A stretch of DNA of 64,000 nucleotides from a virus (taxonomy: Duplodnaviria > Caudoviricetes): the IMG/VR virus record IMGVR_UViG_3300032254_000001, positions 224,001-288,000 of that record; one strand, given 5' to 3'. The notes beneath the pieces are model-generated. The model saw nothing but the letters and a program-made list of their open reading frames with translations. It did no database searches and was not told the DNA's origin. Positions 939-41,537 of this stretch are shown in pieces. Within the stretch, counting starts at the first letter, position 1, and each line of letters opens with the position of its first letter. The position numbers and the translations under genes were made by a program.

Positions 939-3900
939 TTAACCGCCGCTAATTTCACCAGTGTTCTTAATTCTAACAGGAACATAAATAAATTCGCTTG
1001 CTTTAACTGGTTCTATTGCTATATCAACCCAAAGTTCGTTTCGATCAATACGATCATTAGTGTTGTTGCTCTTATCACATACAACAATGTAATCGTAAAT
1101 ACCACGTTTTGAAATTAAGTCATTAAGCATACGCTCCATTTGACCTTTGATTTCATCACGTGTTAACTTGTCGTTTGGTTCAAATACAAACTGCTTACCT
1201 AATGCATCAGCTTGTACACGAATGTGAGCAACCAAACGTGATACGTTAATACGATCTAACGCTGTTCCTGGCTTAGTAGTTTTGTTACCGTAGTTAACAA
1301 TACCTGCACCTGGAATGAATGTAATTGGGTTAACGTTGCTAGTGTACAGTACGTCGCGAATACCCTGGCGTGTTGCCATTTGCTGGAATTCACCTGTCTG
1401 TGCATCAATGTAACCAATTGCATTAACGTTATCAATTTGACCACGTCTAACACCAGCTGGAGCTAACCATGGGTATGATTGTTCGTCGCTGTGTATAATT
1501 GTACGTAGCATCATATGACTTGGTGGAACAACAATTGATGTACCTGATAAGTCATTAGTTCTACCCGATGGATAGAACACACCAAGGTATTCATCATTTG
1601 ATGCTAAGCCATCGCCAGTTGATGTGCCTAGTCCATCGTTGTTTGATGCCCATTCAACAAGTTCTGAACCTGTGTTAGGTAAACGTAATGGTGAATCACC
1701 AACAATAAATGCAGTGTTAGCACGTTCGTTATTTAATGCAACCATGTTAGGAATAAGTTCTGGATATCCCGGAGCTGCAATTAAGTTATACAGACGTTGT
1801 TCTTCACGTATGTCTGAGTTAGTATCAATTGCTGCTTTCATTGCTTCAACAACTAGTGCGCGTTGAGCTAAACGACCAAAGTTTGCACTTCCATCATCTT
1901 TAAGTCCTGATACTGTAACCCATGCATTTCTTTCTGTTGGAAGAACTGCTGAACCAAAGTCATCTGCGTTGAAATAGTTAACACGGAATTCTTTAACGTT
2001 ATAACCGCTTCTACGCATGTTGAATAATAACATACCGTCTGGGTATAAAGCTGGATCTGGCGCATCAATGTCTAAGTAATCGCTTGATAGTAAATCAGTA
2101 GTTGATGGCATGTCACCAGTAACTGGATCTGTGGTACCGTCTCCTGCCCAACGTGCGTCTGCAAATAATACACCGTCTGTTGTTGTTTGATCTGCATTGT
2201 CAATTAATACCCAACCATCAACTGCGTTCTGGTCTTGTTCCCAACGTCTTAGAACTGGATAGTTTTCTAAATCGCTTGTATCAATCCATAAGTCGCCATA
2301 CACCAATGGTGATGAATCTGACTGGAATTCAGGAGCTGTTGGTGAAACAGTTGGACCTGCTGGATCAGTTACTGATAAGTCTAGTCCACGGATATCGTTT
2401 GTAACATTCTTGTAGCCTTTCCAAGCACCACCATCGTGTATCATAATATCAATTTCGTCAATTACTGGGTAGTACCAACGTGTACCATTTAATGGATCTT
2501 GTCCTGGTACTGTAACATCTGCTGTGTAAGTTAATACATTCCAGTTACTTAAAACTAACTGACCTGCGTTATTGTTACGAACACTTTCTAATGCATTACT
2601 AATACCTGTTGCAGCAATCGCGCCACCTGCTGTATCTTCGAGAATAATAACACCACCACCTGTGTGTGAAATGTTTACTCGATTATTTGCAGTAACACTT
2701 GATGTAACGTTTGTAATACCTGCGGCAGTTAAGTCTGCAACAAAATCAGCTGGAGTAGTACCAGTCATTGTAACTGTTACCGCTGCTGTTAAAGCTGTGT
2801 CGTTTGTTACACTTGCTTGGATAGTAAACGCGTCGCCGCTATTAAATACTGGAGCTGTTGTAGCACCAGTAATTGATGTTTCGCCAAATGCACGTTCAAA
2901 GATTTTAAATGTGCCTGTGTTGTTTTCTTGTGTGTCGTACTGCACATATGTATCGCCAACTGCAATTGACTTACCACCAGTAGCTGGATCTAAGAACTTG
3001 TTAGCTGTTTGATCATTTGCATATACTGGAGCTGCTTGTTCAGCGAAAGTATCTGTTGATGAATTGTAACGTTTAATTACAATGTTTGTGCCTTCGTTAA
3101 CTGCTGTAGTCTTCTGCCATATTGAACCACTTGGGCGAGGAGTAACATCTGTTGCTCTCCAACGCGGAATGTTTACATGGCTTTCGTGTGCTACGATTGG
3201 ACCTGCATACGAACCTGCTGTAATACCAAGGTCAGCTAAGATAGTGCCAGTAGTACCATTTGCTAATGTTAATGTTACATCAATTGAACTGCTGTCTGAG
3301 CCTGCACCAGACTCGATGTAAAATTCGATTCTGTTGTTAACCTTTGCAGCGGTAACACCTGTGATACCTGCATTAGTGATATCAGTTACTAATGTATCAA
3401 TTGTAGTACCTGTACCAACAACTGTATTACCGTTGATAACAATGTCATCGCCGATGTTCAATGCCGGGCTAGTTTCTGTGCCAACTACTGTTGCAATACC
3501 TGCTTTCCAATCATCCGAACCGATAAGAACCCATTCGTTGTTATTGTTTTTCCAATATATTGGATTGTTGGCATTAGTTGTTACAATTGCATAAGAGTTA
3601 ATTGTACCAACACTTGCTAATGGAACGCCACCGACTGCTAATAAATCATCGTTGTCTGTGATAAGCATTGGAGTAATTAAGTTAAACGCATTCTGCGTTG
3701 AATTCCAAGCAAATAATCCATATGATGATTCTGCTAAATCAAACCAATAAGCGCCATTGTTTGGATCACCTTTCGGACGTGTTAGTTCAGCTTCTAGTTG
3801 AGTTAAGTCAACGTCAACACGCTGAATGTATGCTCTGTTAGTAGAACCCAAAACTGAGTATGCTGCCATTAATCCGTATTCGTTTAATTCATAACCGTTA

Positions 3901-4151
3901 ATGGCATCGCCACCTGCTGTTTTGTAAAACTCTGGATTACCAAACGTGTTCACAAGTTCACGCTGGCTAGTAATTAAATATATATCATCAACTGATGATG
4001 CTAGTGTACCTGGTGCAATTCCTGTGCCTGCTGGAGTTAATTTATTTTCCGCTGTGGCTAACAAGATGTACGGTACTGTATTCTGTCCTGCTGAAGAGTA
4101 CTGACTTTCGTCTATAATAGTTACTTCAACGCCCGGTGATACAAGTGCCAT
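939..4151 (-). CDS. gp18: Tail sheath protein
   Basis: MALVSPGVEV N-terminus; C-terminal PWLAPAG.RRG, VNPI, YGNKT, ALDRINV.RL, FVFEPND, IEPVKA.EFIY sheath motifs. Confidence 0.97.
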   Translation of the reverse strand: MALVSPGVEVTIIDESQYSSAGQNTVPYILLATAENKLTPAGTGIAPGTLASSVDDIYLITSQRELVNTFGNPEFYKTAGGDAINGYELNEYGLMAAYSVLGSTNRAYIQRVDVDLTQLEAELTRPKGDPNNGAYWFDLAESSYGLFAWNSTQNAFNLITPMLITDNDDLLAVGGVPLASVGTINSYAIVTTNANNPIYWKNNNNEWVLIGSDDWKAGIATVVGTETSPALNIGDDIVINGNTVVGTGTTIDTLVTDITNAGITGVTAAKVNNRIEFYIESGAGSDSSSIDVTLTLANGTTGTILADLGITAGSYAGPIVAHESHVNIPRWRATDVTPRPSGSIWQKTTAVNEGTNIVIKRYNSSTDTFAEQAAPVYANDQTANKFLDPATGGKSIAVGDTYVQYDTQENNTGTFKIFERAFGETSITGATTAPVFNSGDAFTIQASVTNDTALTAAVTVTMTGTTPADFVADLTAAGITNVTSSVTANNRVNISHTGGGVIILEDTAGGAIAATGISNALESVRNNNAGQLVLSNWNVLTYTADVTVPGQDPLNGTRWYYPVIDEIDIMIHDGGAWKGYKNVTNDIRGLDLSVTDPAGPTVSPTAPEFQSDSSPLVYGDLWIDTSDLENYPVLRRWEQDQNAVDGWVLIDNADQTTTDGVLFADARWAGDGTTDPVTGDMPSTTDLLSSDYLDIDAPDPALYPDGMLLFNMRRSGYNVKEFRVNYFNADDFGSAVLPTERNAWVTVSGLKDDGSANFGRLAQRALVVEAMKAAIDTNSDIREEQRLYNLIAAPGYPELIPNMVALNNERANTAFIVGDSPLRLPNTGSELVEWASNNDGLGTSTGDGLASNDEYLGVFYPSGRTNDLSGTSIVVPPSHMMLRTIIHSDEQSYPWLAPAGVRRGQIDNVNAIGYIDAQTGEFQQMATRQGIRDVLYTSNVNPITFIPGAGIVNYGNKTTKPGTALDRINVSRLVAHIRVQADALGKQFVFEPNDKLTRDEIKGQMERMLNDLISKRGIYDYIVVCDKSNNTNDRIDRNELWVDIAIEPVKASEFIYVPVRIKNTGEISGG

Positions 4152-30461: not shown

Positions 30462-31286
30462 TTAGTCGATACCGTCAGCTTTATTTTGAGCTAAGATTTC
30501 ACGCTTGCGCATCATACGCTCAATTCTTGATTTTGACAGGTTGAAGAAATACTCTGCTACACGCTCATGCCAGTGATGGTCTGGGTGCATTCCATCACGT
30601 GCAAATGAATCTATCACAAATGGATTGTTATCGTGCATCTGAAAATTAGTCAGAGTTTCTATAACAGGATTAGAAAAGAATGTAGCAGCATGATTATTAT
30701 ACAAGCTCTCTACAAAGCTATAATTCTTGTTAAAGTTAAATGTTAAATAACTCTCATCTATCATAACCTTAGGAAAATGTTCGTTGTCAATAGCCGCTTG
30801 TATTACCTTATTATCGCCGTAAGGGGTTGGTAGTTCAAGTCTTGTAATTGGAGGCCAGTACACATACACTAAGTCAGGTTCCATATCCCTGTCTACTTTA
30901 TACAGTGTACGAGCAACATAATCTGTGCTTGCTCCGCTAGTTGCCAGGTTCCAGTTAGATGCAGTCTTACCTGTGAACTCTTGTATTTTAGCTTGTAGTC
31001 TAGCAGGCCATGTTTCTTCTTGCTTAACCCCAACACCAACTGTCATGCTGCATCCACATGCTACTATCCTAATGTCAGGCTCATCATAAAAACTATCGCC
31101 ACGATAACCATGTTCGTTGAATGTGTATGTAATGTCGCGCTCAAACTGTGCATGTTCTGGCTTATCTGTATCTAACCAATCCACTGTCATGTTAGGAGGA
31201 TACATTCCACTCATAGGAATCTCTTTTGCCCAGCCAGTTAATGCACTTGTGTTATGCAGGAATTGTCGTTGCTTCCATTTGCTCAT
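30462..31286 (-). CDS. SGNH/GDSL-hydrolase-like protein
   Basis: GCSMT.G.G block I, NLA.SGAS block II, DGMHP block V. Confidence 0.65.
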   Translation of the reverse strand: MSKWKQRQFLHNTSALTGWAKEIPMSGMYPPNMTVDWLDTDKPEHAQFERDITYTFNEHGYRGDSFYDEPDIRIVACGCSMTVGVGVKQEETWPARLQAKIQEFTGKTASNWNLATSGASTDYVARTLYKVDRDMEPDLVYVYWPPITRLELPTPYGDNKVIQAAIDNEHFPKVMIDESYLTFNFNKNYSFVESLYNNHAATFFSNPVIETLTNFQMHDNNPFVIDSFARDGMHPDHHWHERVAEYFFNLSKSRIERMMRKREILAQNKADGID

Positions 31287-31600
31287 ACACTAAAGCTCGT
31301 TCCACAACCGCATTGTGTTTTAGCTGCTGGATTTGATACAACAAATCGCTCGCCTTGTACATCTTTAGTGTAATCAAGTGTTGCCGTCTCAAGGTACTGA
31401 TAGCTCATTGGATCAATTAATACTACCGCACCTGTGTCATTAATAATGATATCGCCTTCGTCAATCTGTTCTGCGAATGCAAACACATAATTAAATCCAC
31501 TACAGCCACCGCCCGATATGCCAATTCGCATTGCCATTGCATTGTCTGTTTCATTAAGTAAATCAAATACTTTTTGTTCTGCTGCTTTTGTTAAATTCAT
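31283..31600 (-). CDS. iscA: A-type Fe-S cluster carrier (HesB/IscA/ErpA family)
   Basis: GGGCSGF.Y, NP.AK..CGCG.SF signature. Confidence 0.93.
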   Translation of the reverse strand: MNLTKAAEQKVFDLLNETDNAMAMRIGISGGGCSGFNYVFAFAEQIDEGDIIINDTGAVVLIDPMSYQYLETATLDYTKDVQGERFVVSNPAAKTQCGCGTSFSV

Positions 31601-31609
31601 AATATTTCT

Positions 31610-31810
31610 CTAGTTGTCACATGCGTTGTACGCTTTAATTAACGAGTCAAGTATTTCCTTATCGATCTCGTCTGCTATTCCCTTGGCCATTTGCTTGACT
31701 AAGATATCTCGAAAACTCATCGACATATCAAACTCGTCTTCGACCGGCGGTATGCCGTTCTTTAAACGGTCCCAAACTTCTGCTTTTTCTTTTGAAAGTT
31801 TCTTAGCCAT
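31610..31810 (-). CDS. WxxL-tagged small protein with major-capsid-like fragment
   Basis: EVWDRLK tag; MAKGIADEIDKEILDSL vs gp23 LAQEITAEIDQEILLSL. Confidence 0.75.
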   Translation of the reverse strand: MAKKLSKEKAEVWDRLKNGIPPVEDEFDMSMSFRDILVKQMAKGIADEIDKEILDSLIKAYNACDN

Positions 31811-31812
31811 AC

Positions 31813-32028
31813 TTATGATACTACTATCGGATCATCAGGAAATGCACTCACTAATTTCCATACTGTGCCAGTAAACACATATATCTGCGAATCGTCTTTA
31901 TTGTAAATCATTGCACCGGCTGCTGGCGGACCTGTCACTGAAGAATTCCAGCCGACTTCGGAAGTCTGCTTAATTCCGTTCTTTAAACGATCCCAAACTT
32001 CTGCTTGATCAGATGTTAGTTCTTTCAA
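31813..32028 (-). CDS. WxxL-tagged small protein with tail-fibre-like motif
   Basis: EVWDRLK tag; AGAMIYN....QIYVFTGTVW. Confidence 0.7.
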   Translation of the reverse strand: MKELTSDQAEVWDRLKNGIKQTSEVGWNSSVTGPPAAGAMIYNKDDSQIYVFTGTVWKLVSAFPDDPIVVS

Positions 32029-32404
32029 GTAGGTCTTCCTCTATTCTTTTCTGCTTATTCTCTTTACTAATATGATGAAGAAAGGCTGAGTGACTAACTT
32101 GCACTAAAAATCCAAATGGGTTATTGCTTTTAGTTGAGTCAAAATGCTGATATGAAATTAACATTTGCATAACCGCAGCTTGAACTAAATCATCTGCGTA
32201 CACTAGACTCTGATAATGTTTTCTGTGTAGTAGTCTATCCGCAAGTTCTATCATGTACTTGCCTAATGCTTGCGATACTTTGCCATCATTTTGTGCATAG
32301 TCTATAGCAATAAGCAAATCAGAATTGTTGTTGATTGGACCGTAATAGCCCCACGGGTCAACTAACTTATCCCATACTGCACGTTGGTCTTTATTCAACA
32401 GCAT
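32009..32404 (-). CDS. WxxL-tagged truncated gp55-like sigma factor paralogue
   Basis: AVWDKL tag; IELADR..HR.HY....YADDL..A......FDSTKSNNPFGF......AFL..I.KE.KQ aligns with the gp55 core at 60984..61961. Confidence 0.75.
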   Translation of the reverse strand: MLLNKDQRAVWDKLVDPWGYYGPINNNSDLLIAIDYAQNDGKVSQALGKYMIELADRLLHRKHYQSLVYADDLVQAAVMQMLISYQHFDSTKSNNPFGFLVQVSHSAFLHHISKENKQKRIEEDLLERTNI

Positions 32405-32711
32405 TGAGTTTGTCCCATATAGCTTCTTTCTCTAAGCGATCATGGAACTCAATCATTGCTGCTTTTCTTTCTTTCTTAAAAAGATCAAGTGCTATCTTGT
32501 GTGGGCAGTCCTCAGGGTACTCAGTTATGTTGTGTTCAGCTTCGCTTAAGCGACAAGAAACCCAAGTGTTGTCTGACTCGTAGTCCCTGCTGTGATCGCT
32601 TATGTGTAATGTTTCATCCCACTCGTAGTAATTTTTACATTCAAGTATATCTCTGCACATACTGTCATAATGTATTCTAAACATCTTTCCTCTGCTCTGC
32701 TGCAATTTCAC
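32391..32711 (-). CDS. Cys/His-containing WxxL-tagged protein
   Basis: ECK.Y.E.D..C..NI.EYPE.C.H; AIWDKL; paralogue of 33765..34031. Confidence 0.7.
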   Translation of the reverse strand: MKLQQSRGKMFRIHYDSMCRDILECKNYYEWDETLHISDHSRDYESDNTWVSCRLSEAEHNITEYPEDCPHKIALDLFKKERKAAMIEFHDRLEKEAIWDKLNAVE

Positions 32712-32937
32712 TAATTAATATATCAGCTAGTTCTTGTTCAACATCTATTCCGTGTAGGGACTCTAGGTCTTTAGCAACGTCAACAGTCCAACTAGCACGT
32801 AGCCTACGGGTCACAGGGCCAGTCTCCTTTAGGCGGTCCCAAACTTTTTCTTTCTCTCGTTGAATAGCTTCTTTCTGCTTCCGGATACCGTTGCGGATCT
32901 TTCGTTGGTTCACTTGTATTGCTGTCTCTTTCATCAA
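32677..32937 (-). CDS. WxxL-tagged small protein with major-capsid fragment
   Basis: KVWDRLK; TRRLRASWT..DLESLHGIDVEQE..EIAAE is 21/39 identical to gp23 residues 167-205. Confidence 0.8.
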   Translation of the reverse strand: MMKETAIQVNQRKIRNGIRKQKEAIQREKEKVWDRLKETGPVTRRLRASWTVDVAKDLESLHGIDVEQELADILISEIAAEQRKDV

Positions 32938-33166
32938 ACTTCCATTCTCCTAGTATATGTTTATTAAATTCTGTCATATCTTTAGTCAGACTGTCAATGT
33001 ATGCGTCTACTAAAGACCAATCGATCCCATACTTCTGGGGGAGTTGTGTTACCCCAGATAATTTCTTCCATATGGTCTCTTCTTCTTTTTGCAGCCGCTC
33101 TCTTTCTTTTCGCCTCTGCTCTTTTCTTTTTCCGCGGGTCCTGAAACGTTTCCGTCTTGAAGTCAA
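32804..33166 (-). CDS. Arg-rich WxxL-tagged protein
   Basis: TTG start with GGAGG SD; TIWKKL; N-terminus paralogous to the 33419 gene. Confidence 0.7.
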   Translation of the reverse strand: MTSRRKRFRTRGKRKEQRRKERERLQKEEETIWKKLSGVTQLPQKYGIDWSLVDAYIDSLTKDMTEFNKHILGEWKFDERDSNTSEPTKDPQRYPEAERSYSTRERKSLGPPKGDWPCDP

Positions 33167-33419
33167 AATGAAACCCTCCTACTGGTTCTATACCTGCTGT
33201 TTGTTCGCCCATTGGCTGTACACCAACTAAGTCGTCTGCAATCATTACAGGTGCTATGCGTCTCATTAACGGCATTAAAATAGCGCCAAGATCATCCCAA
33301 TCGTATTCAGGTGGTAGTGGCGGGCTAACATTTGTTAACTTGTTCCAAGTCTCTAACGACTCTTTCCTTAGTGCTTTACGCTTACCACGCTGCCTACGTC
33401 TGCGCCTGACACTAGTCAT
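32994..33419 (-). CDS. Arg-rich WxxL-tagged protein with Gol-like major-capsid fragment
   Basis: ETWNKL and EVWDRL tags; LGAILMPLMRRIAPVMIADDLVGVQPM is 14/27 identical to gp23 residues 57-83. Confidence 0.8.
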   Translation of the reverse strand: MTSVRRRRRQRGKRKALRKESLETWNKLTNVSPPLPPEYDWDDLGAILMPLMRRIAPVMIADDLVGVQPMGEQTAGIEPVGGFHFDFKTETFQDPRKKKRAEAKRKRAAAKRRRDHMEEIIWGNTTPPEVWDRLVFSRRIH

Positions 33420-33765
33420 CGTCGGTAATATCCTTAGGTTTAGGTTTCATTATTATAACATTATCATGCTCGTCGGACTTCTCGTATTTGTTCTTAATAC
33501 TATCTAACTTTTCTTCAAATGTGTCGCAGGCCCACTCGTTTAATTGATTGTATAAGTCAGCAGCACCAGGCGTCACAGTGTGTCTAAATGTTTCTGTTTT
33601 TGAATCATAATTGCTGATTATACGTTCTATTCGTATTACCCGCTTCCTGCGCCACCAAGACTTGAAATGAATAGTAAAAACATCATAAACCTTTGTGCCA
33701 ATCTTATGCTCCATTGTGTGCTCGAAGTATTCGATTTTATCAAAAAATTCTTTAGGTAGTATCAT
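33412..33765 (-). CDS. Hypothetical protein (no tag)
   Basis: 117-aa coupled ORF. Confidence 0.65.
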   Translation of the reverse strand: MILPKEFFDKIEYFEHTMEHKIGTKVYDVFTIHFKSWWRRKRVIRIERIISNYDSKTETFRHTVTPGAADLYNQLNEWACDTFEEKLDSIKNKYEKSDEHDNVIIMKPKPKDITDDD

Positions 33766-34031
33766 TATAGGACCTGTATATGTACTGGATCACGTAAAAG
33801 TGATTTTACTGTTCTATGGGGTTGATTCAATTTCTTCCACATTATATCTTGTTGCTTTGCTTTATCTTTCGCAATGGTAATATCTTCAAGGTGCAAACAA
33901 CCTTCTGGATATTTAATAATGTTAATCGTCACACCCATTACAATACAGGAATGACATTTACCAACCTGCATATCAAACTCTCTGTGGTACTTGCATTCCT
34001 TTGATTTACAAAATTCATTAAAGTTATACAT
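33765..34031 (-). CDS. Cys/His-containing WxxL-tagged protein
   Basis: ECKYH.EFD..C..NI.KYPEGC.H; IMWKKL. Confidence 0.7.
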   Translation of the reverse strand: MYNFNEFCKSKECKYHREFDMQVGKCHSCIVMGVTINIIKYPEGCLHLEDITIAKDKAKQQDIMWKKLNQPHRTVKSLLRDPVHIQVL

Positions 34032-35055
34032 GCTCTACAACTACTTTTACATTTGGAAACGGTGTTATAAACTGCCCACATGCAGACTGAATTTCAACTC
34101 CGGTTGAAATTTGTATCTTTAAATTATTGTGAAACTTTGCAAACTGCACAATAATTTCCTTAAAGCGATCGCTTTCTTCCATTTCGTTAGCATCACATCT
34201 GTTATAGCGTAGTACTCTGAACTCGTAGTCTTCTAGATTCCACTTAGTGATAAAATCAAACAATGCTTGCACTTCTTCTTCGCTATCGTTAACACCATCC
34301 ATAAACATATGATGGAATATTAAATTATGTTTGTTGTTGTCTGCGTACTTTAACAGCTTCGGCATTGCTTCTTCCAATGGCATAGCTCCAGGAATAATTT
34401 GATCCCTAGTCTCTTGTACTGCACTGTGCAACGAATAAAACAATCTAAATGGACTGCGCTGTATGTAATTGCCCATTGATGATTGTGCTTCACTATGCAC
34501 AACAACCTTGTTATTTGGATTAGTTCCAAATGATTTTAGGTCTTCATTGAGCTCGTGAAATATGTCAATCCAATCATCGTTTCTAATTTTAGGTAGCACT
34601 GTTGAAAGATCAACACCATCTAAGCCTGCTGCGTAGTTGTTATCTGTTACGTAGTTTAACACATCGTTGGTTGCTCTGTACACCCCTGCTGGGTTAAGAA
34701 TTGCTTCGCCCATGCCCATCCAGCATACTTTCATGTATCTGCTTGCTATGCTTGCATCGTGTTGCACTGCATGATCAATTGCATCAATAAGATTTGATTG
34801 CACTGTAGTAATTGGCAGCTTCTTGTAAGGCATTTCTTTCATTGTTAAGTAACAGAAGTCACACTGCATCGGGCATCCGCCGCTAATCGATGCGAACACT
34901 GAATACTTATTTCTGTTAATAGGATTCATTTCCAGTACACCAGTTACTGGATTTCTAATTGTGTCGCAGCTTGAAACAGTTTTTATTGCAGTTTCAGACG
35001 TGTCGCTATGCACATACTTTGTTACTAGTCCGTCATCTGATTCAAAAACTTCCAT
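34024..35055 (-). CDS. RlmN/Cfr-like radical SAM protein
   Basis: GCPMQCDFC, MGMGE, SLHSA, EI.SACGQ motifs. Confidence 0.85.
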   Translation of the reverse strand: MEVFESDDGLVTKYVHSDTSETAIKTVSSCDTIRNPVTGVLEMNPINRNKYSVFASISGGCPMQCDFCYLTMKEMPYKKLPITTVQSNLIDAIDHAVQHDASIASRYMKVCWMGMGEAILNPAGVYRATNDVLNYVTDNNYAAGLDGVDLSTVLPKIRNDDWIDIFHELNEDLKSFGTNPNNKVVVHSEAQSSMGNYIQRSPFRLFYSLHSAVQETRDQIIPGAMPLEEAMPKLLKYADNNKHNLIFHHMFMDGVNDSEEEVQALFDFITKWNLEDYEFRVLRYNRCDANEMEESDRFKEIIVQFAKFHNNLKIQISTGVEIQSACGQFITPFPNVKVVVEHV

Positions 35056-35290
35056 TGGTATTCCTCTTCAATGAGTCCGGGTGAATTATTTCGTTACGAA
35101 CTCTGTTGTTTTCTCTTTCCCTTGCTGCTTCCATCTCTGCTAGTATCTCGTCTTGGATGCGACGAACTGCTTCTTCCATACGTCCTACCATGTGTCGTAG
35201 CATCTCTTCCCATTCCGTGTCATGGATAGAAGGTTCTTCCTGCAGACCGTTCTTTAAGCGATCCCAGACTTCTTCTTGCTCTGTGTTCAT
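35042..35290 (-). CDS. WxxL-tagged small protein
   Basis: EEVWDRLKNG. Confidence 0.7.
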   Translation of the reverse strand: MNTEQEEVWDRLKNGLQEEPSIHDTEWEEMLRHMVGRMEEAVRRIQDEILAEMEAARERENNRVRNEIIHPDSLKRNTNGSF

Positions 35291-35472
35291 GCCGTTGTGT
35301 CCGATACTATTGTTATAGCCTTGTCAGCTCGAAGCACCTGTGTTGACCAATATATCGATCGATACATAAGTGGTTCAAATTTAACCTTAGGCTCTGGAAC
35401 ATGCTTAAGCTTTTCCCACACCAGTTCTTTATCACTGGGTTCTGCAGATGTTACTTTCTTGACTTTTGCCAC
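35287..35472 (-). CDS. WxxL-tagged small protein
   Basis: ELVWEKLKHVPEPK, shared with the 36567 gene. Confidence 0.65.
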   Translation of the reverse strand: MAKVKKVTSAEPSDKELVWEKLKHVPEPKVKFEPLMYRSIYWSTQVLRADKAITIVSDTTA

Positions 35473-35671
35473 TAAATTTTAATGCGAAAATTATCGCATC
35501 CTCCTTATACTCAAACCACCAACGTGTGTTAGTGTAATGGTGATAAAAACATCCACCATCTTGTTGTTCGACACACCACTTGTGAGCTTCTTTAATACAG
35601 TCACGACATGGTGGTGGAACAACAAACCATAATTCATTACGATGTTCCTTAGGTGGATTACACCACTTCAC
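35432..35671 (-). CDS. Small 'W.FE..DA..F.LK' family protein
   Basis: KWC...WWFEYKEDAIIFALKF. Confidence 0.7.
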   Translation of the reverse strand: MKWCNPPKEHRNELWFVVPPPCRDCIKEAHKWCVEQQDGGCFYHHYTNTRWWFEYKEDAIIFALKFSGKSQESNICRTQ

Positions 35672-35919
35672 TCATCTTTACCTACTACCACATACTCGAC
35701 GCTAGATACGCCGTCACCTAAATCTTTGTGTACTAATTTAGTTTCCACCTTACCTCCTCGCATATCAGCGAACAGTTGCGATGCTTTTTTAAGTTCTTCT
35801 TCTGTGTTCTCTACTTCTTTCCAATTCGAAGCCTTGCTCAGCTTTTCCCACATTAATTCCTTATCGTCATCTTCTGTAGTCTTGCCAAGAAGTATTCTTT
35901 TAAAACGTTCTAAGTTCAT
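35668..35919 (-). CDS. WxxL-tagged small protein
   Basis: ELMWEKLS. Confidence 0.7.
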   Translation of the reverse strand: MNLERFKRILLGKTTEDDDKELMWEKLSKASNWKEVENTEEELKKASQLFADMRGGKVETKLVHKDLGDGVSSVEYVVVGKDE

Positions 35920-36143
35920 TTGTCGATTGTACTCTCAATATCGAAATACATTGTTTTACCAGCTCCGCGTCGTGCTGCTATTACAACCAATTCACCTTTG
36001 CCAACACCACCACACAATGCTCTACCTAATTGCTGTTGGTACCATGTTAGGCCGTTGCCATTAAATGGTGGTACATACTCTGTGGATAACTTTTCCCACA
36101 TTAGTTCCTGCTCAGCGGCTTTTGAGGATTTTGATTGTGACAT
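35916..36143 (-). CDS. WxxL-tagged protein with isolated P-loop (Walker A) fragment
   Basis: ELMWEKLS; GG...GELVVIAARRGAGKT. Confidence 0.75.
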   Translation of the reverse strand: MSQSKSSKAAEQELMWEKLSTEYVPPFNGNGLTWYQQQLGRALCGGVGKGELVVIAARRGAGKTMYFDIESTIDK

Positions 36144-36567
36144 TATTTGGATCCACCTCTTCTTTAGAAATACTTAGTATAGTGTCCATCATGCTCGGAT
36201 ATAATGAACTAATGTCATTATCAAACGTGCTACCCTTAGGCTGTGGAACATGTTTAAGCTTTTCCCAAACTTCTGCCTTTTCCTCTTCGATCTTCTGTAA
36301 TAAAATTTTAGCTTTAACACGGGTACCAAACACAGGACTTTTTGCAGCTTCCTGCAAGTCTGCTATCTCCATGCGGATCCGGTTGTCATGCTCCTCATCA
36401 GTATCAGTAATCATCCTAAGTCTAGCTTTTGCTCGTAGCCTAATGCCCATTGAATCATCCTTACTAAGGATTTTAAGATATTCCGGGCCATTGTTCATTA
36501 GCTCTATCTTCTCAGCTTCAGACATTGCCATTATTCTAATTTGGTCAAACAGATCAACTTCACTCAT
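36112..36567 (-). CDS. WxxL-tagged protein with DNA polymerase B motif-A fragment
   Basis: EVWEKLK; DISSLYPSMM. Confidence 0.75.
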   Translation of the reverse strand: MSEVDLFDQIRIMAMSEAEKIELMNNGPEYLKILSKDDSMGIRLRAKARLRMITDTDEEHDNRIRMEIADLQEAAKSPVFGTRVKAKILLQKIEEEKAEVWEKLKHVPQPKGSTFDNDISSLYPSMMDTILSISKEEVDPNNVTIKILKSR

Positions 36568-36797
36568 TTAAATTTTAATGCAAACAATGTTGCATCCTCT
36601 TCGTTTTCAAAATACCAATATGTTTCTCTAAATTCCACGTCCGCTTTATTTTCTTTATACCTGCGATAATATTGCCCTGATGAATTATGTCCTGTGCACC
36701 ATGATCCTTCCGCAGTATACGATCTAGATGCATGTCTAACTAATGTCACTTTATTCCACGGGTGGCCGTTAACATCGCCTATATCTTTATATTCCAC
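36564..36797 (-). CDS. Small 'W.FE..DA..F.LK' family protein
   Basis: WC..WYFENEEDATLFALKF. Confidence 0.7.
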   Translation of the reverse strand: MEYKDIGDVNGHPWNKVTLVRHASRSYTAEGSWCTGHNSSGQYYRRYKENKADVEFRETYWYFENEEDATLFALKFK

Positions 36798-37540: not shown

Positions 37541-37569
37541 ATTATAGCAAGTTTTGGAGGGATGGTCAA
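37541..37569 (-). promoter_or_regulatory. Early sigma70 promoter TTGACC-17-TATAAT
   Basis: Heads the coupled operon containing the tagged genes. Confidence 0.8.
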
Positions 37570-37808
37570 TCAGTTTTGGTGTCATCGAGTGTAATGTTAA
37601 CGCTTAAATAGGGGAATTCGGTGTCATCTACGTACTCAACATCGTACGGCTTTTCAATTGTGCAATCGGTACTTAAAAAGGCATCTACTGCCGTCTGTTC
37701 CTCTATGGATAATACCTCATCCTGGAAAAGCCATATATCCATAACCGATTCGAATCCACCGTGCTTAATAAGAAGCAGTGTCATTAGGTGTTCCTGTTCT
37801 GGAGTCAT
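37566..37808 (-). CDS. Small 'L.(L/I)K(Y/H)G' family protein
   Basis: TLLLIKHGGFE..MDIWL; promoter TTGACA-17-TAACAT at 37856-37884. Confidence 0.65.
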   Translation of the reverse strand: MTPEQEHLMTLLLIKHGGFESVMDIWLFQDEVLSIEEQTAVDAFLSTDCTIEKPYDVEYVDDTEFPYLSVNITLDDTKTD

Positions 37809-37880
37809 AAGTCAGACCTTTATGGGCTTCTGTGTTTGACGCTTTACAAGCCGTTATGTTAACACACTATTTTGGTGTTG

Positions 37881-38033
37881 TCAATGGCTGTTCTTTATAT
37901 GCACGTCAAAACCTTCTTTTTCATGCTCGTAATATACAGGAGTATTGTTCAAAATCTTTGCTATTGAATGTGCAAACTCTCTGTCTTCTGTCATTAGTCG
38001 TACGAATGTTGCTTTAAGCTCTTCGTCACTCAT
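37881..38033 (-). CDS. Small hypothetical protein (50 aa)
   Basis: Not in track. MSDEELKATFVRLMTEDREFAHSIAKIL... Confidence 0.5.
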   Translation of the reverse strand: MSDEELKATFVRLMTEDREFAHSIAKILNNTPVYYEHEKEGFDVHIKNSH

Positions 38034-38247
38034 CTTCATTATCTGTATCCTTTGGATTATCGTATAGTTTGTTAAACTCTTTCTTTACATCTAAAACAAG
38101 ATTTGGTAATATTTTTATTGCATGTTCACCTAGTACTTCCTTCTGGGCATCACTGAACTGTTCTTTATCGTACAACCATATACAGAATGCGTTCTCTATA
38201 CTGCCGTACTTCAAAATTAAAAATGTTTTAACATCATCTTCACTCAT
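38026..38247 (-). CDS. Small 'LILKYG' family protein
   Basis: TFLILKYGSIENAFCIWL. Confidence 0.7.
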   Translation of the reverse strand: MSEDDVKTFLILKYGSIENAFCIWLYDKEQFSDAQKEVLGEHAIKILPNLVLDVKKEFNKLYDNPKDTDNEDE

Positions 38248-38447
38248 TTGCGTCTGGTCTCTGCAAAGAATATATTAATAGCATCGTGCAAGTGAGCGGG
38301 CATTTTATCGTGTGTATTGATCCACATATGGAATGCTTTGTCCAAATTGCCGTATTTTAATATTAAATATGATTCTATATTATCCATAGTTATCGGTCCC
38401 GGGTGATACGCTGTTCGCGTTACTAGCGTAACACACTCGTCTACCAA
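38244..38447 (-). CDS. Small 'LILKYG' family protein (true start probably MDNIES)
   Basis: SYLILKYGNLDKAFHMWI. Confidence 0.65.
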   Translation of the reverse strand: MVDECVTLVTRTAYHPGPITMDNIESYLILKYGNLDKAFHMWINTHDKMPAHLHDAINIFFAETRRK

Positions 38448-38847: not shown

Positions 38848-38885
38848 AATTCGTGCTTCTATCTTGAGGGCGCTTTACAGCACTT

Positions 38886-38958
38886 AGTATAACAATTTAA
38901 AATGCGTTTGTCAACCTTATCGTAATATTTGACTTATACCCATTTTGCATGTTACACT
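38886..38958. promoter_or_regulatory. Back-to-back sigma70 promoters
   Basis: Minus: TTGACA-17-TATACT (38914-38886). Plus: TTGACT-18-TACACT (38929-38958). Confidence 0.7.
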
Positions 38959-38962
38959 CATC

Positions 38963-39035
38963 CTACGAAAGCGTAGAGCAGTTACACGCTTTTGGCCCAC
39001 TAGGGCCATCGAGGACGAAGTACTCGAGTAACTGC
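38963..39035 (+). ncRNA. Structured 5' leader (hairpin plus three-way junction)
   Basis: CTACG/CGTAG; GCAGTTAC/GTAACTGC encloses TGGCCC/GGGCCA and TCGAG/CTCGA. Confidence 0.55.
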
Positions 39036-39053
39036 GAAGAATAGGAACTTATT

Positions 39054-39284
39054 ATGAATGTAGTACCCGGAGCATCTATAACAGCTATTAAAGATTCGTA
39101 CTTTATGGTTGAAGCACGTACTCCTTTTGAGCGTGATGGCGAATTATATCCATGGTGTAAGAATCACGATAGCGAAGGATATTTCAATTATGCTAATCGC
39201 TACTCTAGTGGCGGTAACGTCCGACCACAGTTTTGGTTTGAGTTAGAAGCTGATGCTATGTTGTTTAAGTTGAAATTCGCATGA
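39054..39284 (+). CDS. Small 'W.FE..DA..F.LK' family protein
   Basis: WC...FWFELEADAMLFKLKF. Confidence 0.7.
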   Translation: MNVVPGASITAIKDSYFMVEARTPFERDGELYPWCKNHDSEGYFNYANRYSSGGNVRPQFWFELEADAMLFKLKFA

Positions 39285-39628
39285 GACTTATAATAGCTGG
39301 AAGCAGACACTTAACACTTGATGTAGAAGGCATACAGGCCTTTATTAACTATTTAGGTATTACAGATATAACCGAAGTAGTGTGTGGCATGGCGCCTGGT
39401 ATTGATGCTGCTGGAAAATTATGGGCAGAATCTAATAACATTCCAGTTGAGCCGTTTCCTGCAGAGTGGGAGACGTACGGCAAAGCTGCTGGGCATATAC
39501 GCAATAAGCAAATGGCAGACTACGGTGATGAACTACTAGTAATTTGGAACGGTAAGTCTCCGGGTTCTCGTAATATGAAGACCACAATGGAAAAATTGGG
39601 CAAAAAGGTACACGAAGGCACATTCTAA
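39281..39628 (+). CDS. SLOG-superfamily protein (DUF2493/YspA-like)
   Basis: IIAGSR, G.A.G.D, FPA.W..YGKAAG..RN.QM, W.G.S.G motifs. Confidence 0.8.
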   Translation: MRLIIAGSRHLTLDVEGIQAFINYLGITDITEVVCGMAPGIDAAGKLWAESNNIPVEPFPAEWETYGKAAGHIRNKQMADYGDELLVIWNGKSPGSRNMKTTMEKLGKKVHEGTF

Positions 39629-39810
39629 TGACAAACGATTACCCATACAAAGTTAGATTTAAATGGCGTTACGGTGAAATGCTAAAGGATCTTTCTGCAT
39701 GGTGTAATGAGAATTGCACCGGCGAATATCAGTATCAATACACTGCTTCAGTGTTTTGGTTTAAAGAGTCTAAGGATGCAATGATGTTTAAACTGGCTAA
39801 CAACTTATGA
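39628..39810 (+). CDS. Small 'W.F...DA..F.L' family protein
   Basis: WC...FWFKESKDAMMFKL. Confidence 0.65.
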   Translation: MTNDYPYKVRFKWRYGEMLKDLSAWCNENCTGEYQYQYTASVFWFKESKDAMMFKLANNL

Positions 39811-39992
39811 TACTAAGCATTCCAATCAAAGATTACTGCATTGGTTGTCGTATGAAGTCTGTCAGACCGCAGTTTAAACCTAGGCAAGACGACTTCAATT
39901 ATCTGTACTTTAGTATTAACGATGTTGTGTACTTTGAATGGAGTAAGGAATTTGAGCAAGCTTTACTATGGGAGGCACTGCAACGTGATTGA
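39807..39992 (+). CDS. Small hypothetical protein
   Basis: FEWSKEFEQALLWEAL; paralogue of the next gene. Confidence 0.6.
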   Translation: MILSIPIKDYCIGCRMKSVRPQFKPRQDDFNYLYFSINDVVYFEWSKEFEQALLWEALQRD

Positions 39993-40167
39993 ATACCAGC
40001 GACTAGACTATCCGTGGGAATGGTACGTACTTACTGAGAGGGATTTTATCTGTCGCCCTGATGACTTTAGGCGAATTATATTTAGAGTTGATGGTGCAGA
40101 ATTTATCGAGTGGAATGCAGAATTTGAACATGCTCTTTTAATAGAAAGGCTTAGCCGGTCTGCTTGA
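39922..40167 (+). CDS. Small hypothetical protein (true start likely GTG ~39985)
   Basis: IEWNAEFEHALLIERL. Confidence 0.55.
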   Translation: MLCTLNGVRNLSKLYYGRHCNVIEYQRLDYPWEWYVLTERDFICRPDDFRRIIFRVDGAEFIEWNAEFEHALLIERLSRSA

Positions 40168-40192
40168 CAAACTAAAATTTACATGTTATGCT
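40164..40192 (+). promoter_or_regulatory. Sigma70 promoter TTGACA-17-TATGCT with no downstream ORF
   Basis: Points into an ~80-nt noncoding stretch that ends at a terminator. Confidence 0.6.
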
Positions 40193-40279
40193 TAGTTCTG
40201 TCCAAGCAAGCGAGGTCAGTCGAACACGTTCGAGTCACCCGCAACAACAGAACCTACTTATCATGGATTACAACTCAAA

Positions 40280-40307
40280 AAAAAGCACTCTGTAAAGAGT
40301 GCTTTTT
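40280..40307. terminator. Bidirectional intrinsic terminator after gp23
   Basis: AAAAAGCACTCT-gtaa-AGAGTGCTTTTT. Confidence 0.85.
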
Positions 40308-40346
40308 AATTTTACTTCAAACTATCTAAGATAGTACAGTAACAAC

Positions 40347-41537
40347 TTAGCTAAAGCTTAAATTGCTGACTGCGACTTCCCCTAAATAATCTCCAGCATT
40401 ACCGAAAGATGATGCAGTATTCGTAAGCTCAATATAACCATAACGTGTCATAAAGCTTACAACTGGCTCAAATGTACTTGGATCAAGTACAACACCTGAA
40501 CTCATTAAAGGAACGTATGGGCAGTAGAACGCTGGTGCGTCTGCTTCGCTTGAACCTTTATAACCAACAAGTACTGGAGTAGTGTCGTTAGCATAGCTAT
40601 CAACGTAAACTTTCATTGCTGAGTTAAGAGTACCAACAAACTTAGTGTTTGTAGGAGCTTCAAATGTACCTTCAGTGGTACGTGCAAATGCAGAGGTAGT
40701 AGCTGACTGTAGTACAGTTAAAGAAGCTGGTGAAACAACTGCATAGTTACCAGCGCCACGACGTGTACGTGTAGCGATAAGGTTAGCTGTACGGTTGATA
40801 AGAACTGCTAATGCAGCATGTTCATCACCTACGAATGTAGCAGTACCTGAAACAAGTGACTGATCGTATGTGAATTCTGTGCTTGCTAATGAACGTAAAG
40901 ATAAAAGAATCTCTTGGTCAATTTCAGCAGTAATTTCTTGTGCTAAAGCAGCCATGATTTCAGCTTCAACATCAATGCCGTGCATTGACTGAGCATCTTG
41001 AGCAGCTTCAAAAGTCCAACGTGCTTGTAACTTACGTGTCTTAGCTTCAACAGCTTGCTTTAAGATCTGAACGGAAATGTTACGACCGCCTTCGCCTTCT
41101 AAGTTTGCTGTCTGTGCTGCACGGTAGTCAGCTTGTGTAGCGCCAACACCAGCTGAGTATGCTTGCGCAATCTTGAATGGTGATAGTGCTTCTTCGCCTG
41201 CTGCTGTACTAGTACTAGCTGCACTTGAATCAGTCATAGTAGAACCGTAACGTACACGAAGTGTATGAATCTGGCTTACAGGACCTGACATTGGCTGTAC
41301 ACCTACAAGTTCATTTGCAATGACTGTAGGCATAACACGTCGAATAACTGGTAAAATAACACGGTTTAATGTTGCAACGTTACCAGCGGCAGTAGCGCCA
41401 CTTGATGCAGATTCTGCTAAGTGGTTACGAGTGTTTTCCAAAATTACGCTCATTGTAGAACGTTTGGTACCGTCTAGACCTTCAAGCAATGCTTCTTTGG
41501 TCTCACCCCAACGGTTTTCTAATAGTGCTTGTGACAT
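40347..41537 (-). CDS. gp23: Major capsid protein
   Basis: IRR..P..IA..LVGVQPM, KTRKL.ARWT.E.AQD, EIDQEI, FYCPYVPL, MTRYG motifs. Confidence 0.98.
   Translation of the reverse strand: MSQALLENRWGETKEALLEGLDGTKRSTMSVILENTRNHLAESASSGATAAGNVATLNRVILPVIRRVMPTVIANELVGVQPMSGPVSQIHTLRVRYGSTMTDSSAASTSTAAGEEALSPFKIAQAYSAGVGATQADYRAAQTANLEGEGGRNISVQILKQAVEAKTRKLQARWTFEAAQDAQSMHGIDVEAEIMAALAQEITAEIDQEILLSLRSLASTEFTYDQSLVSGTATFVGDEHAALAVLINRTANLIATRTRRGAGNYAVVSPASLTVLQSATTSAFARTTEGTFEAPTNTKFVGTLNSAMKVYVDSYANDTTPVLVGYKGSSEADAPAFYCPYVPLMSSGVVLDPSTFEPVVSFMTRYGYIELTNTASSFGNAGDYLGEVAVSNLSFS

Follow-up and report, generated by a model that had tools for sequence, protein, structure and literature searches.

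Cleavage of EF-Tu by Lit falls between Gly59 and Ile60. In T4 the cut is enabled by Gol, 29 residues of gp23 that bind domains II-III of EF-Tu, and the isolated 29-residue peptide is active alone (PMC3014915). In the unexpanded T4 head the N-terminal region of gp23, as far as residue 105, is turned toward the scaffold, and the same region carries the length mutations A94V and G97S and the portal-anchoring residue M98 (PMC9546572). The I domain of T4 gp23 is inserted in the E loop (PMC9958956).

We analysed a 64,000-nucleotide stretch of phage DNA (hereafter the window) from a viral record of 344,483 bp with terminal repeats, which was obtained from a microbial mat metagenome. An original prediction, made from the letters of the window, had flagged one small open reading frame (ORF) as a stand-alone Gol-like capsid fragment. 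P-numbers below denote proteins, with P0001 the product of the flagged ORF, and L-numbers denote contigs. The genuine major capsid protein of the phage, gp23 (40347..41537, minus strand), is 396 aa long, matches Pfam Gp23 at E 5e-96 and represents the parent type of the fragments described here. Capsid proteins 62-67% identical to it are found in Sinorhizobium phage Phosso, Vibrio phage 2.275.O, Pseudomonas phage PA5oct and the Rak2-like group, and from the gp23 match and these capsid relatives we conclude that the phage is a T4-superfamily jumbo phage. Genes for Lit (Peptidase_U49) and EF-Tu were not found in the phage's own genome, nor were tRNA genes found in the window.

The P0001 gene (32994..33419) is located ~7 kb downstream of gp23 on the same minus strand and encodes a protein of 141 aa with a pI of 10.7. 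Its residues 44-70, which are encoded by 33210-33290 exactly as predicted, are homologous to residues 57-83 of the phage's own gp23 and to residues 94-120 of T4 gp23. BLASTP of P0001 47-70 against window gp23 60-83 gave 13/24 identities and 22/24 positives at a pairwise E of 1e-8, and adding L44 reproduced the predicted 14 identities in 27 residues. Pfam Gp23 (PF07068) matched P0001 residues 46-77 at profile positions 6-37 with 26.6 bits (E 5e-6), exceeding the curated cut-off of 24.4 bits; PHROG 138 'major head protein' matched P0001 at E 7.5e-6, and a six-frame scan of the whole 344-kb genome recovered the site at E 9e-7. The phage's own gp23 57-86 aligns gap-free with the stretch of the solved T4 gp23* structure that corresponds to precursor residues 94-122, bearing out the claim that the matching T4 region is the Gol peptide, and the T4 Gol string given in the prediction agrees with the PDB chain. 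The claim that no other capsid sequence is attached stood for the P0001 ORF but needed correction on two counts, as the family alignment adds ~15 residues reaching into the first E-loop strand and the second gene downstream (32677-32937) carries gp23 167-210. At the DNA level the two Gol copies are only 60% identical, with the same codon at 8 of the 14 shared residues, and recent gene conversion between P0001 and gp23 is therefore excluded. Of the HK97-type body, which in full has P and A domains, ~376 profile positions and 390-520 aa, P0001 matched positions 6-37 only. We conclude that P0001 matches the Gp23 model locally, lacks the full fold and is not a capsid protein or subunit.

The Gol-equivalent core of P0001 is acidic (pI 4.6) and is set between very basic flanks. 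Ahead of it are an Arg-rich helix (residues 4-19, 33363..33410), near-invariant in close homologues, and a Trp tag, E-T-W-N-K-L (residues 21-28, 33336..33359), which is a motif of the surrounding gene array and whose codons vary synonymously. Behind the core, residues 71-92 (33144..33209) align with the first E-loop strand of gp23, a stretch that reads GIEPV..RY in the family and is degenerate here (AF2 pLDDT ~50), and residues 93-141 (32994..33143) form a basic C-terminal tail that is dual-coded with the next gene; all of these features are on the minus strand. A second tag-like string near the C-terminus, EVWDRL, is not conserved in homologues and is an alternative frame of the neighbour's K-Y-G-I-D-W, and given both observations we regard it as incidental. 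An AF2 model built from a 27-row alignment placed three long helices at residues 4-29, 41-64 and 93-125 without a compact fold (pTM 0.31); pLDDT was 94-97 for the helix at 4-29 and the stretch 65-92 was of low confidence. The model suggests that P0001 is an extended protein and likely partner-dependent. Modeling of P0001 38-95 in complex with E. coli EF-Tu gave no answer (score 0.00) and weighs neither in favour of binding nor against it, and look-alike searches of the ESM Atlas returned nothing usable. The T4-type cleavage motif [LI]-x-E does not occur in P0001 residues 1-43, and the protease of this clade may have a specificity other than that of T4.

A word-indexed search returned five small homologues of P0001, and an exhaustive profile search of 1.84 billion representatives returned at least 27 clusters at <=50% identity, all of metagenomic proteins, with lengths of 90-142 aa, full-length matches and E-values down to 1e-43. 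The members have a common plan in which an N-terminal Arg-rich helix (RRKRRQRGKRK) is followed by T-W-x-x-L, a Pro-rich linker, the Gol-like core, the GIEPV..RY stretch and a basic tail. Across the family R53, P57, A61 and P69 never vary, and P50, I60, V65, V67, Q68 and M70 are at least 90% conserved. The original prediction had been staked on conservation of the segment in homologous ORFs, and the Gol-like core is in fact the best-conserved part of these at least 27 diverged proteins. The same 28-residue core is the most conserved stretch of the major capsid protein, and its site-wise entropy in 27 mini-proteins followed that in 120 gp23 cluster representatives drawn from the same profile search (Spearman rho 0.87, p 2e-9), with 4 of the 28 positions partly fixed by the anchor used to extract the segment and the remaining positions independent of it. 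The two core consensus sequences differ at 7/28 positions. The mini-protein consensus has Pro, Met, Asn and Val residues that are typical of gp23 in this clade, unlike those of T4, which indicates that P0001 originated in an old partial duplication within the lineage.

Based on these family data, which exclude both chance and decay, we conclude that the P0001 family is a real, selected stand-alone module. The same site-wise constraint in the absence of the HK97 fold is most easily explained by a partner that reads the linear segment. Put more generally, residues that are kept when the Gol segment stands alone would either be read by an outside partner or allow the free copies to rebuild the local environment of gp23. 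No described family of stand-alone Gol or N-arm proteins was found in Pfam, PHROGs, NCBIfam, cultured-phage records or the literature searched, and judged by sequence the stand-alone Gol-segment proteins are a previously undescribed small-protein family.

The profile search also returned complete small proteins that carry the Gol segment on at least two unrelated other scaffolds. In one type a ~90-aa N-domain is joined to Gol (P0038, P0058, P0138 and P0031) and in the other a ~95-aa C-domain is joined to Gol (P0033, P0044 and P0166); singleton architectures exist as well, and P0071 has the Trp tag without the Arg-rich helix. Two of these genes are complete and far from any capsid gene: P0044 (L105 4001-4441, plus strand, on a 128-kb contig), which adjoins UvdE, MotA/ExbB-like and trypsin-PDZ genes and has non-structural surroundings, and P0138 (L104 145-720, plus strand). 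Counting P0001, the Gol segment, which within gp23 belongs to the N-arm and P-domain, retains its residues as a free-standing module on three or more scaffolds. The N-domain of the second architecture ends in D-A-x-L-F-K-M-F-F, similar to a C-terminal 'FALKF' motif of small proteins in the array described below; a link between the two found no support, with nothing returned by BLASTP and a probability of 15% from hhalign.

Among 50,697 cultured-phage records, full-length relatives of P0001, P0044 and P0138 were absent and only capsid genes were recovered, and a DNA search of cultured phages with the P0001 region gave no match. Five related jumbo-phage records searched whole contained gp23 and no member of the P0001 family, and the P0001 gene is therefore accessory. 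In an IMG/VR scan that used the alignment of the P0001 family, each of the best 80 loci proved to be a genuine gp23 gene, in some cases truncated at the end of a contig.

P0001 overlaps its downstream neighbour P0003 (32804..33166, minus strand) by 173 nt in the +1 frame. P0003, an ORF with homologues in related contigs, has a TTG start preceded at 8 nt by GGAGG and opens with an Arg-rich, Trp-tagged module like that of P0001; no capsid piece was detected in it. It in turn overlaps the 32677-32937 gene by 134 nt. The same +1 overlap was found in at least six related contigs (L085, L087, L088, L094, L096 and L100). Read one base out of frame, the basic tail that is conserved in the P0001 family gives the Arg-rich beginning of the neighbour gene, so that conservation of the tail is probably, and most simply, a by-product of the overlap.

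The 32677..32937 gene (minus strand) is a second capsid mini-gene, whose 86-aa product consists of a basic leader, a Trp tag and gp23 167-210 (Pfam Gp23 E 5e-12, profile positions 147-190). The gp23 piece is 47.7% identical to gp23 and comprises the return E-loop strand and the start of the spine helix, and homologues fall into 8 clusters. The gene order, with the +1 overlapping neighbour and the spine-helix mini-gene, recurs in at least four other contigs. Given the position at which the T4 I domain is inserted, the two flanks of the E loop are divided between P0001 and the 86-aa protein, and from HK97 topology the two proteins may pair with each other. The L098 array contains a second Gol half. 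The C-terminal motif of gp23, VGY.G....FYCPYVP, is present in a mini-protein encoded on L100 (4524-4778, plus strand), which is Arg-rich and Trp-tagged, is 52% identical to window gp23 324-348 over 25 aa (E 5e-8) and has no counterpart in the window.

These genes belong to an array of ~14 translationally coupled mini-genes (31610-36567, minus strand) that have in common the tag [VILMT]-W-[DEKN]-[KR]-L. The tag occurs 20 times in the genome against 1.4 expected, with 14 of the occurrences in minus-strand ORFs at 31.6-36.6 kb. It is present on non-basic mini-proteins of the array too, and the synonymous variation of its codons indicates selection at the protein level. Tagged ORFs on the minus strand show short matches to the core of the gp55 late sigma factor (32009-32404, PHROG E 1e-16), the DnaB Walker A motif (35916-36143, PHROG E 5e-5) and a primase zinc finger (33765-34031, PHROG E 2e-3), and a further minus-strand ORF matches a tail-fibre-like DUF2793 motif (31813-32028, E 6e-3), several of these core-protein matches being weak. 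Homologous arrays were found in L094, L100, L101 and L102. Interleaved with the tagged mini-genes are genes for paralogous proteins of ~70-80 aa that end in W-x-F-E-x-x-E-D-A-x-L-F-A-L-K-F, the 'FALKF' proteins mentioned above (35432-35671 and 36564-36797 on the minus strand of the window; 631-840, 3869-4114 and 5222-5431 in L100). Small paralogous ORFs with L-I-L-K-Y-G-S...W are present just upstream of the tagged array (37566-38447, minus strand) and in L100 (786-2598, plus strand).

The array also contains a gene for a radical SAM protein (34024-35055, minus strand) that is a distant relative of Cfr/RlmN (NCBIfam E 1e-17, far below the family cut-offs). Its best matches are Cfr/RlmN RNA methyltransferases, with the C-terminal part included (PDB Cfr 2e-8), and it retains the CxxxCxxC cluster and the C-terminal ACGQ motif; judged by eye, it has Phe where RlmN has the first methyl-carrying Cys. 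No SPASM-type domain was detected in the protein, and the matches to maturase models, none better than E 1e-3, were confined to the generic core. The array ends with a gene for an ErpA/IscA-type iron-sulfur insertion protein (31283-31600, minus strand, E 1e-40), which has a homologue at the same place in L102. Both genes are in the same gap-free run as P0001.

A strong terminator-like hairpin just past gp23 (40280..40307, minus strand) separates the late capsid operon from the small-gene region. A sigma70-like promoter with an 11/12 match and a TG extension (37541..37569, minus strand) heads the gap-free run of small genes that contains P0001, and a second one, also 11/12, is located further upstream (38886..38914, minus strand). 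The two 11/12 sites fall in the only intergenic gaps upstream, against 0.2 such sites in shuffles (P ~0.007), and no gaps or terminators were found between the promoter and P0001. The T4 late-promoter word TATAAATA was not enriched (5 seen, 6.9 expected), and no Rfam family was found in 31.0-40.4 kb. A search of RNA sequencing runs returned none that covers the region. P0001 is thus likely transcribed early by the host polymerase, ahead of gp23, a timing suggested by matches to the promoter consensus only. In the ~1.5 kb past the gp23 terminator (38848-40346) neither strand has a convincing ORF, tRNA genes and Rfam matches are absent as well, and this ORF-poor stretch ends at a strong sigma70-like promoter (38914-38886).

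As a tentative first choice we propose that P0001 acts in trans by imitating the Gol segment that gp23 exposes and would bind a host factor recognising this segment, possibly EF-Tu by analogy with T4. We rank this reading first because EF-Tu binding in T4 is the only known activity of the isolated segment and because the conserved block has the same boundaries. It further draws on the homology, the family of at least 27 clusters, the matching entropy, the other scaffolds, the extended AF2 model and the early-type setting, as well as on the relative of Cfr/RlmN rRNA methyltransferases in the same operon. For the time of expression, the partner and the effect of P0001 we infer the following. In an ancestor of this jumbo-phage subclade, a copy restricted to the Gol-equivalent segment of gp23 (its N-arm and first E-loop strand) would have been joined to the end of an Arg-rich helix that terminates in the Trp tag of the array. 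Produced ahead of gp23 from a sigma70-like promoter of the host type, P0001 would then mimic in trans the exposed Gol segment of nascent or unassembled gp23. The acidic 28-residue core would occupy the site on a factor that recognises the linear segment, most likely, by the T4 precedent, EF-Tu domains II-III, and the basic helix may anchor P0001 to nucleic acid or to a partner common to the tagged mini-proteins. As an outcome, a Gol-sensing abortive-infection system might be intercepted or translation modulated. EF-Tu is very abundant, and simple titration is therefore implausible.

The other gp23 pieces in the arrays, namely the spine helix and, in L100, FYCPYVP, are not known to have any connection with EF-Tu and suggest a capsid- or sensor-directed logic, and their occurrence in neighbouring mini-genes makes capsid-directed readings serious rivals. 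P0001 and its 86-aa neighbour could pair as they do inside gp23, making a split mini-gp23, or each could dock on gp23, scaffold or portal, so that the phage would control how its own heads assemble or would poison head assembly in co-infecting T4-like phages or satellites. We rank such an interface mimic only slightly below the Gol mimic. It would account for two colinear gp23 pieces in genes two apart with a spacing near that of the parent, for recurrence of the pair in L085, L087, L094, L095 and L100, for the third, C-terminal piece in the L100 array, and for the fact that the two pieces flank the E loop, the site of the T4 I domain (PMC9958956); the scaffold contact, length mutations and portal anchoring of the T4 N-terminal region agree with it (PMC9546572). 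However, the invariant GVQPM strand is folded in cis in both capsid states of gp23, which leaves no obvious vacant site in trans, free Gol modules occur on other scaffolds with no spine-helix partner in view, and the promoter-like sites suggest expression before the capsid genes. That early timing would instead suit a decoy or antagonist placed ahead of gp23 to act on an abortive-infection sensor that reads capsid peptides, either Lit-like through EF-Tu or CapRel-like by direct contact, with P0001 belonging to a tagged library that imitates the best-conserved motifs of core phage proteins. Gol and Lit are a precedent for a sensor that reads exactly this segment, and the arrays do carry conserved motifs (gp23 pieces, DnaB Walker A, primase zinc finger and gp55 core), yet a mimic of the trigger would normally activate a sensor on binding and not block it, no sensor is known for the host of this phage, several of the matches are weak, and only fragments with conserved motifs are recognisable in the first place, which biases detection. 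On balance we hold a sensor decoy to be unlikely.

It is still less probable that P0001 is a packaged internal head protein, in which the N-arm copy would be a capsid-targeting handle on the scaffold and the Arg/Lys-rich helices would bind packaged DNA and travel along into the next cell. The very basic flanks around the acidic core would fit such a protein, the N-terminal region of T4 gp23 is inside the prohead beside the scaffold (PMC9546572), and the variety of domains to which the module is fused is reminiscent of cargo tagging; but P0001 has no T4-type [LI]-x-E near its N-terminus, the overlapping gene probably accounts for its basic C-tail, and its gene lies past a terminator and is not part of the operon of head genes. 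Gene fragments do accumulate in the hyperplastic small-ORF regions of T4-like phages, and five related jumbo phages are without the P0001 gene, as would be expected if P0001 were non-functional debris, either a decaying partial duplicate of gp23 or a chance match. The E-values exclude chance, however, and the ORF has been retained in at least 27 diverged homologues together with its architecture and invariant residues, with the synteny and the +1 overlap also conserved, so that we regard debris as very improbable; a decayed gp24-like pseudogene is ruled out by the family conservation. We give the least credence to a RiPP-like precursor in which the W-x-[KR] tag would be cross-linked by the radical SAM enzyme of the array. 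That gene (34024-35055) does sit within an array of ~14 small ORFs sharing W-x-K/R, but the enzyme is closest to Cfr/RlmN and has no SPASM-type domain, matches to cyclophane maturases cover the generic core only, and the L100 array of ~30 genes has no such enzyme. Its affinity to Cfr/RlmN in particular makes a RiPP precursor unlikely.

We also entertain, as a more speculative and rather improbable extension, that Gol is an autonomous portable handle that has repeatedly been cut from the capsid gene. T4-like phages would mount the excised segment on different scaffolds, and here it would be part of an early Trp-tagged library that blunts host sensors, in which each mini-protein would display the most conserved linear motif of capsid, helicase, primase or late sigma, and Lit-type sensing of Gol would be among the targets. 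If this reading of the array is true, tagged mimics of a phage's own conserved motifs would be a new phage strategy, and the array would provide a list of candidate peptide patterns that are read by bacterial immunity. Returning to the Gol mimic, a free-standing and selected copy of the segment suggests that its constraint corresponds at least partly to an interaction outside the folded subunit, and P0001 would be a small, soluble and testable reagent for interactions of the Gol segment.

Compared with known systems, P0001 is most directly related to the T4 Gol peptide (gp23 94-122), with which it is homologous over the same boundaries and keeps the Arg, the two Pro, Ile-Ala and GVQPM. In T4, Gol exists inside the capsid protein only and is a liability, whereas P0001 is a separate product with an Arg-rich, Trp-tagged leader that has been selected in many phages. 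The vertex protein gp24 of T4-like phages likewise arose by duplication of the major capsid gene; it is a full-length HK97-fold subunit, in contrast to P0001, which keeps ~30-45 residues (Pfam profile positions 6-37 of 376). Like the T4 internal proteins IPI, IPII and IPIII, P0001 is small, basic and phage-encoded and could ride in the head, but it has no similarity to their targeting sequence and no [LI]-x-E, so that any targeting would be through the capsid-protein copy. Its N-terminal Arg-rich helix followed by Trp presumably resembles the arginine-rich motif peptides of the phage lambda N type, from which the array differs in that its Trp tag is also found on non-basic mini-proteins. MicroProteins are small, originate from a single interaction part of a larger protein and act through non-productive binding, and to our knowledge none have been described for phages. 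P0001 is like the microProteins of plants and animals in being small, in deriving from a fragment of a larger, assembly-forming protein and in being plausibly competitive; it differs from them in that fragments of the P0001 type carry a common tag and form arrays of a dozen or more genes.
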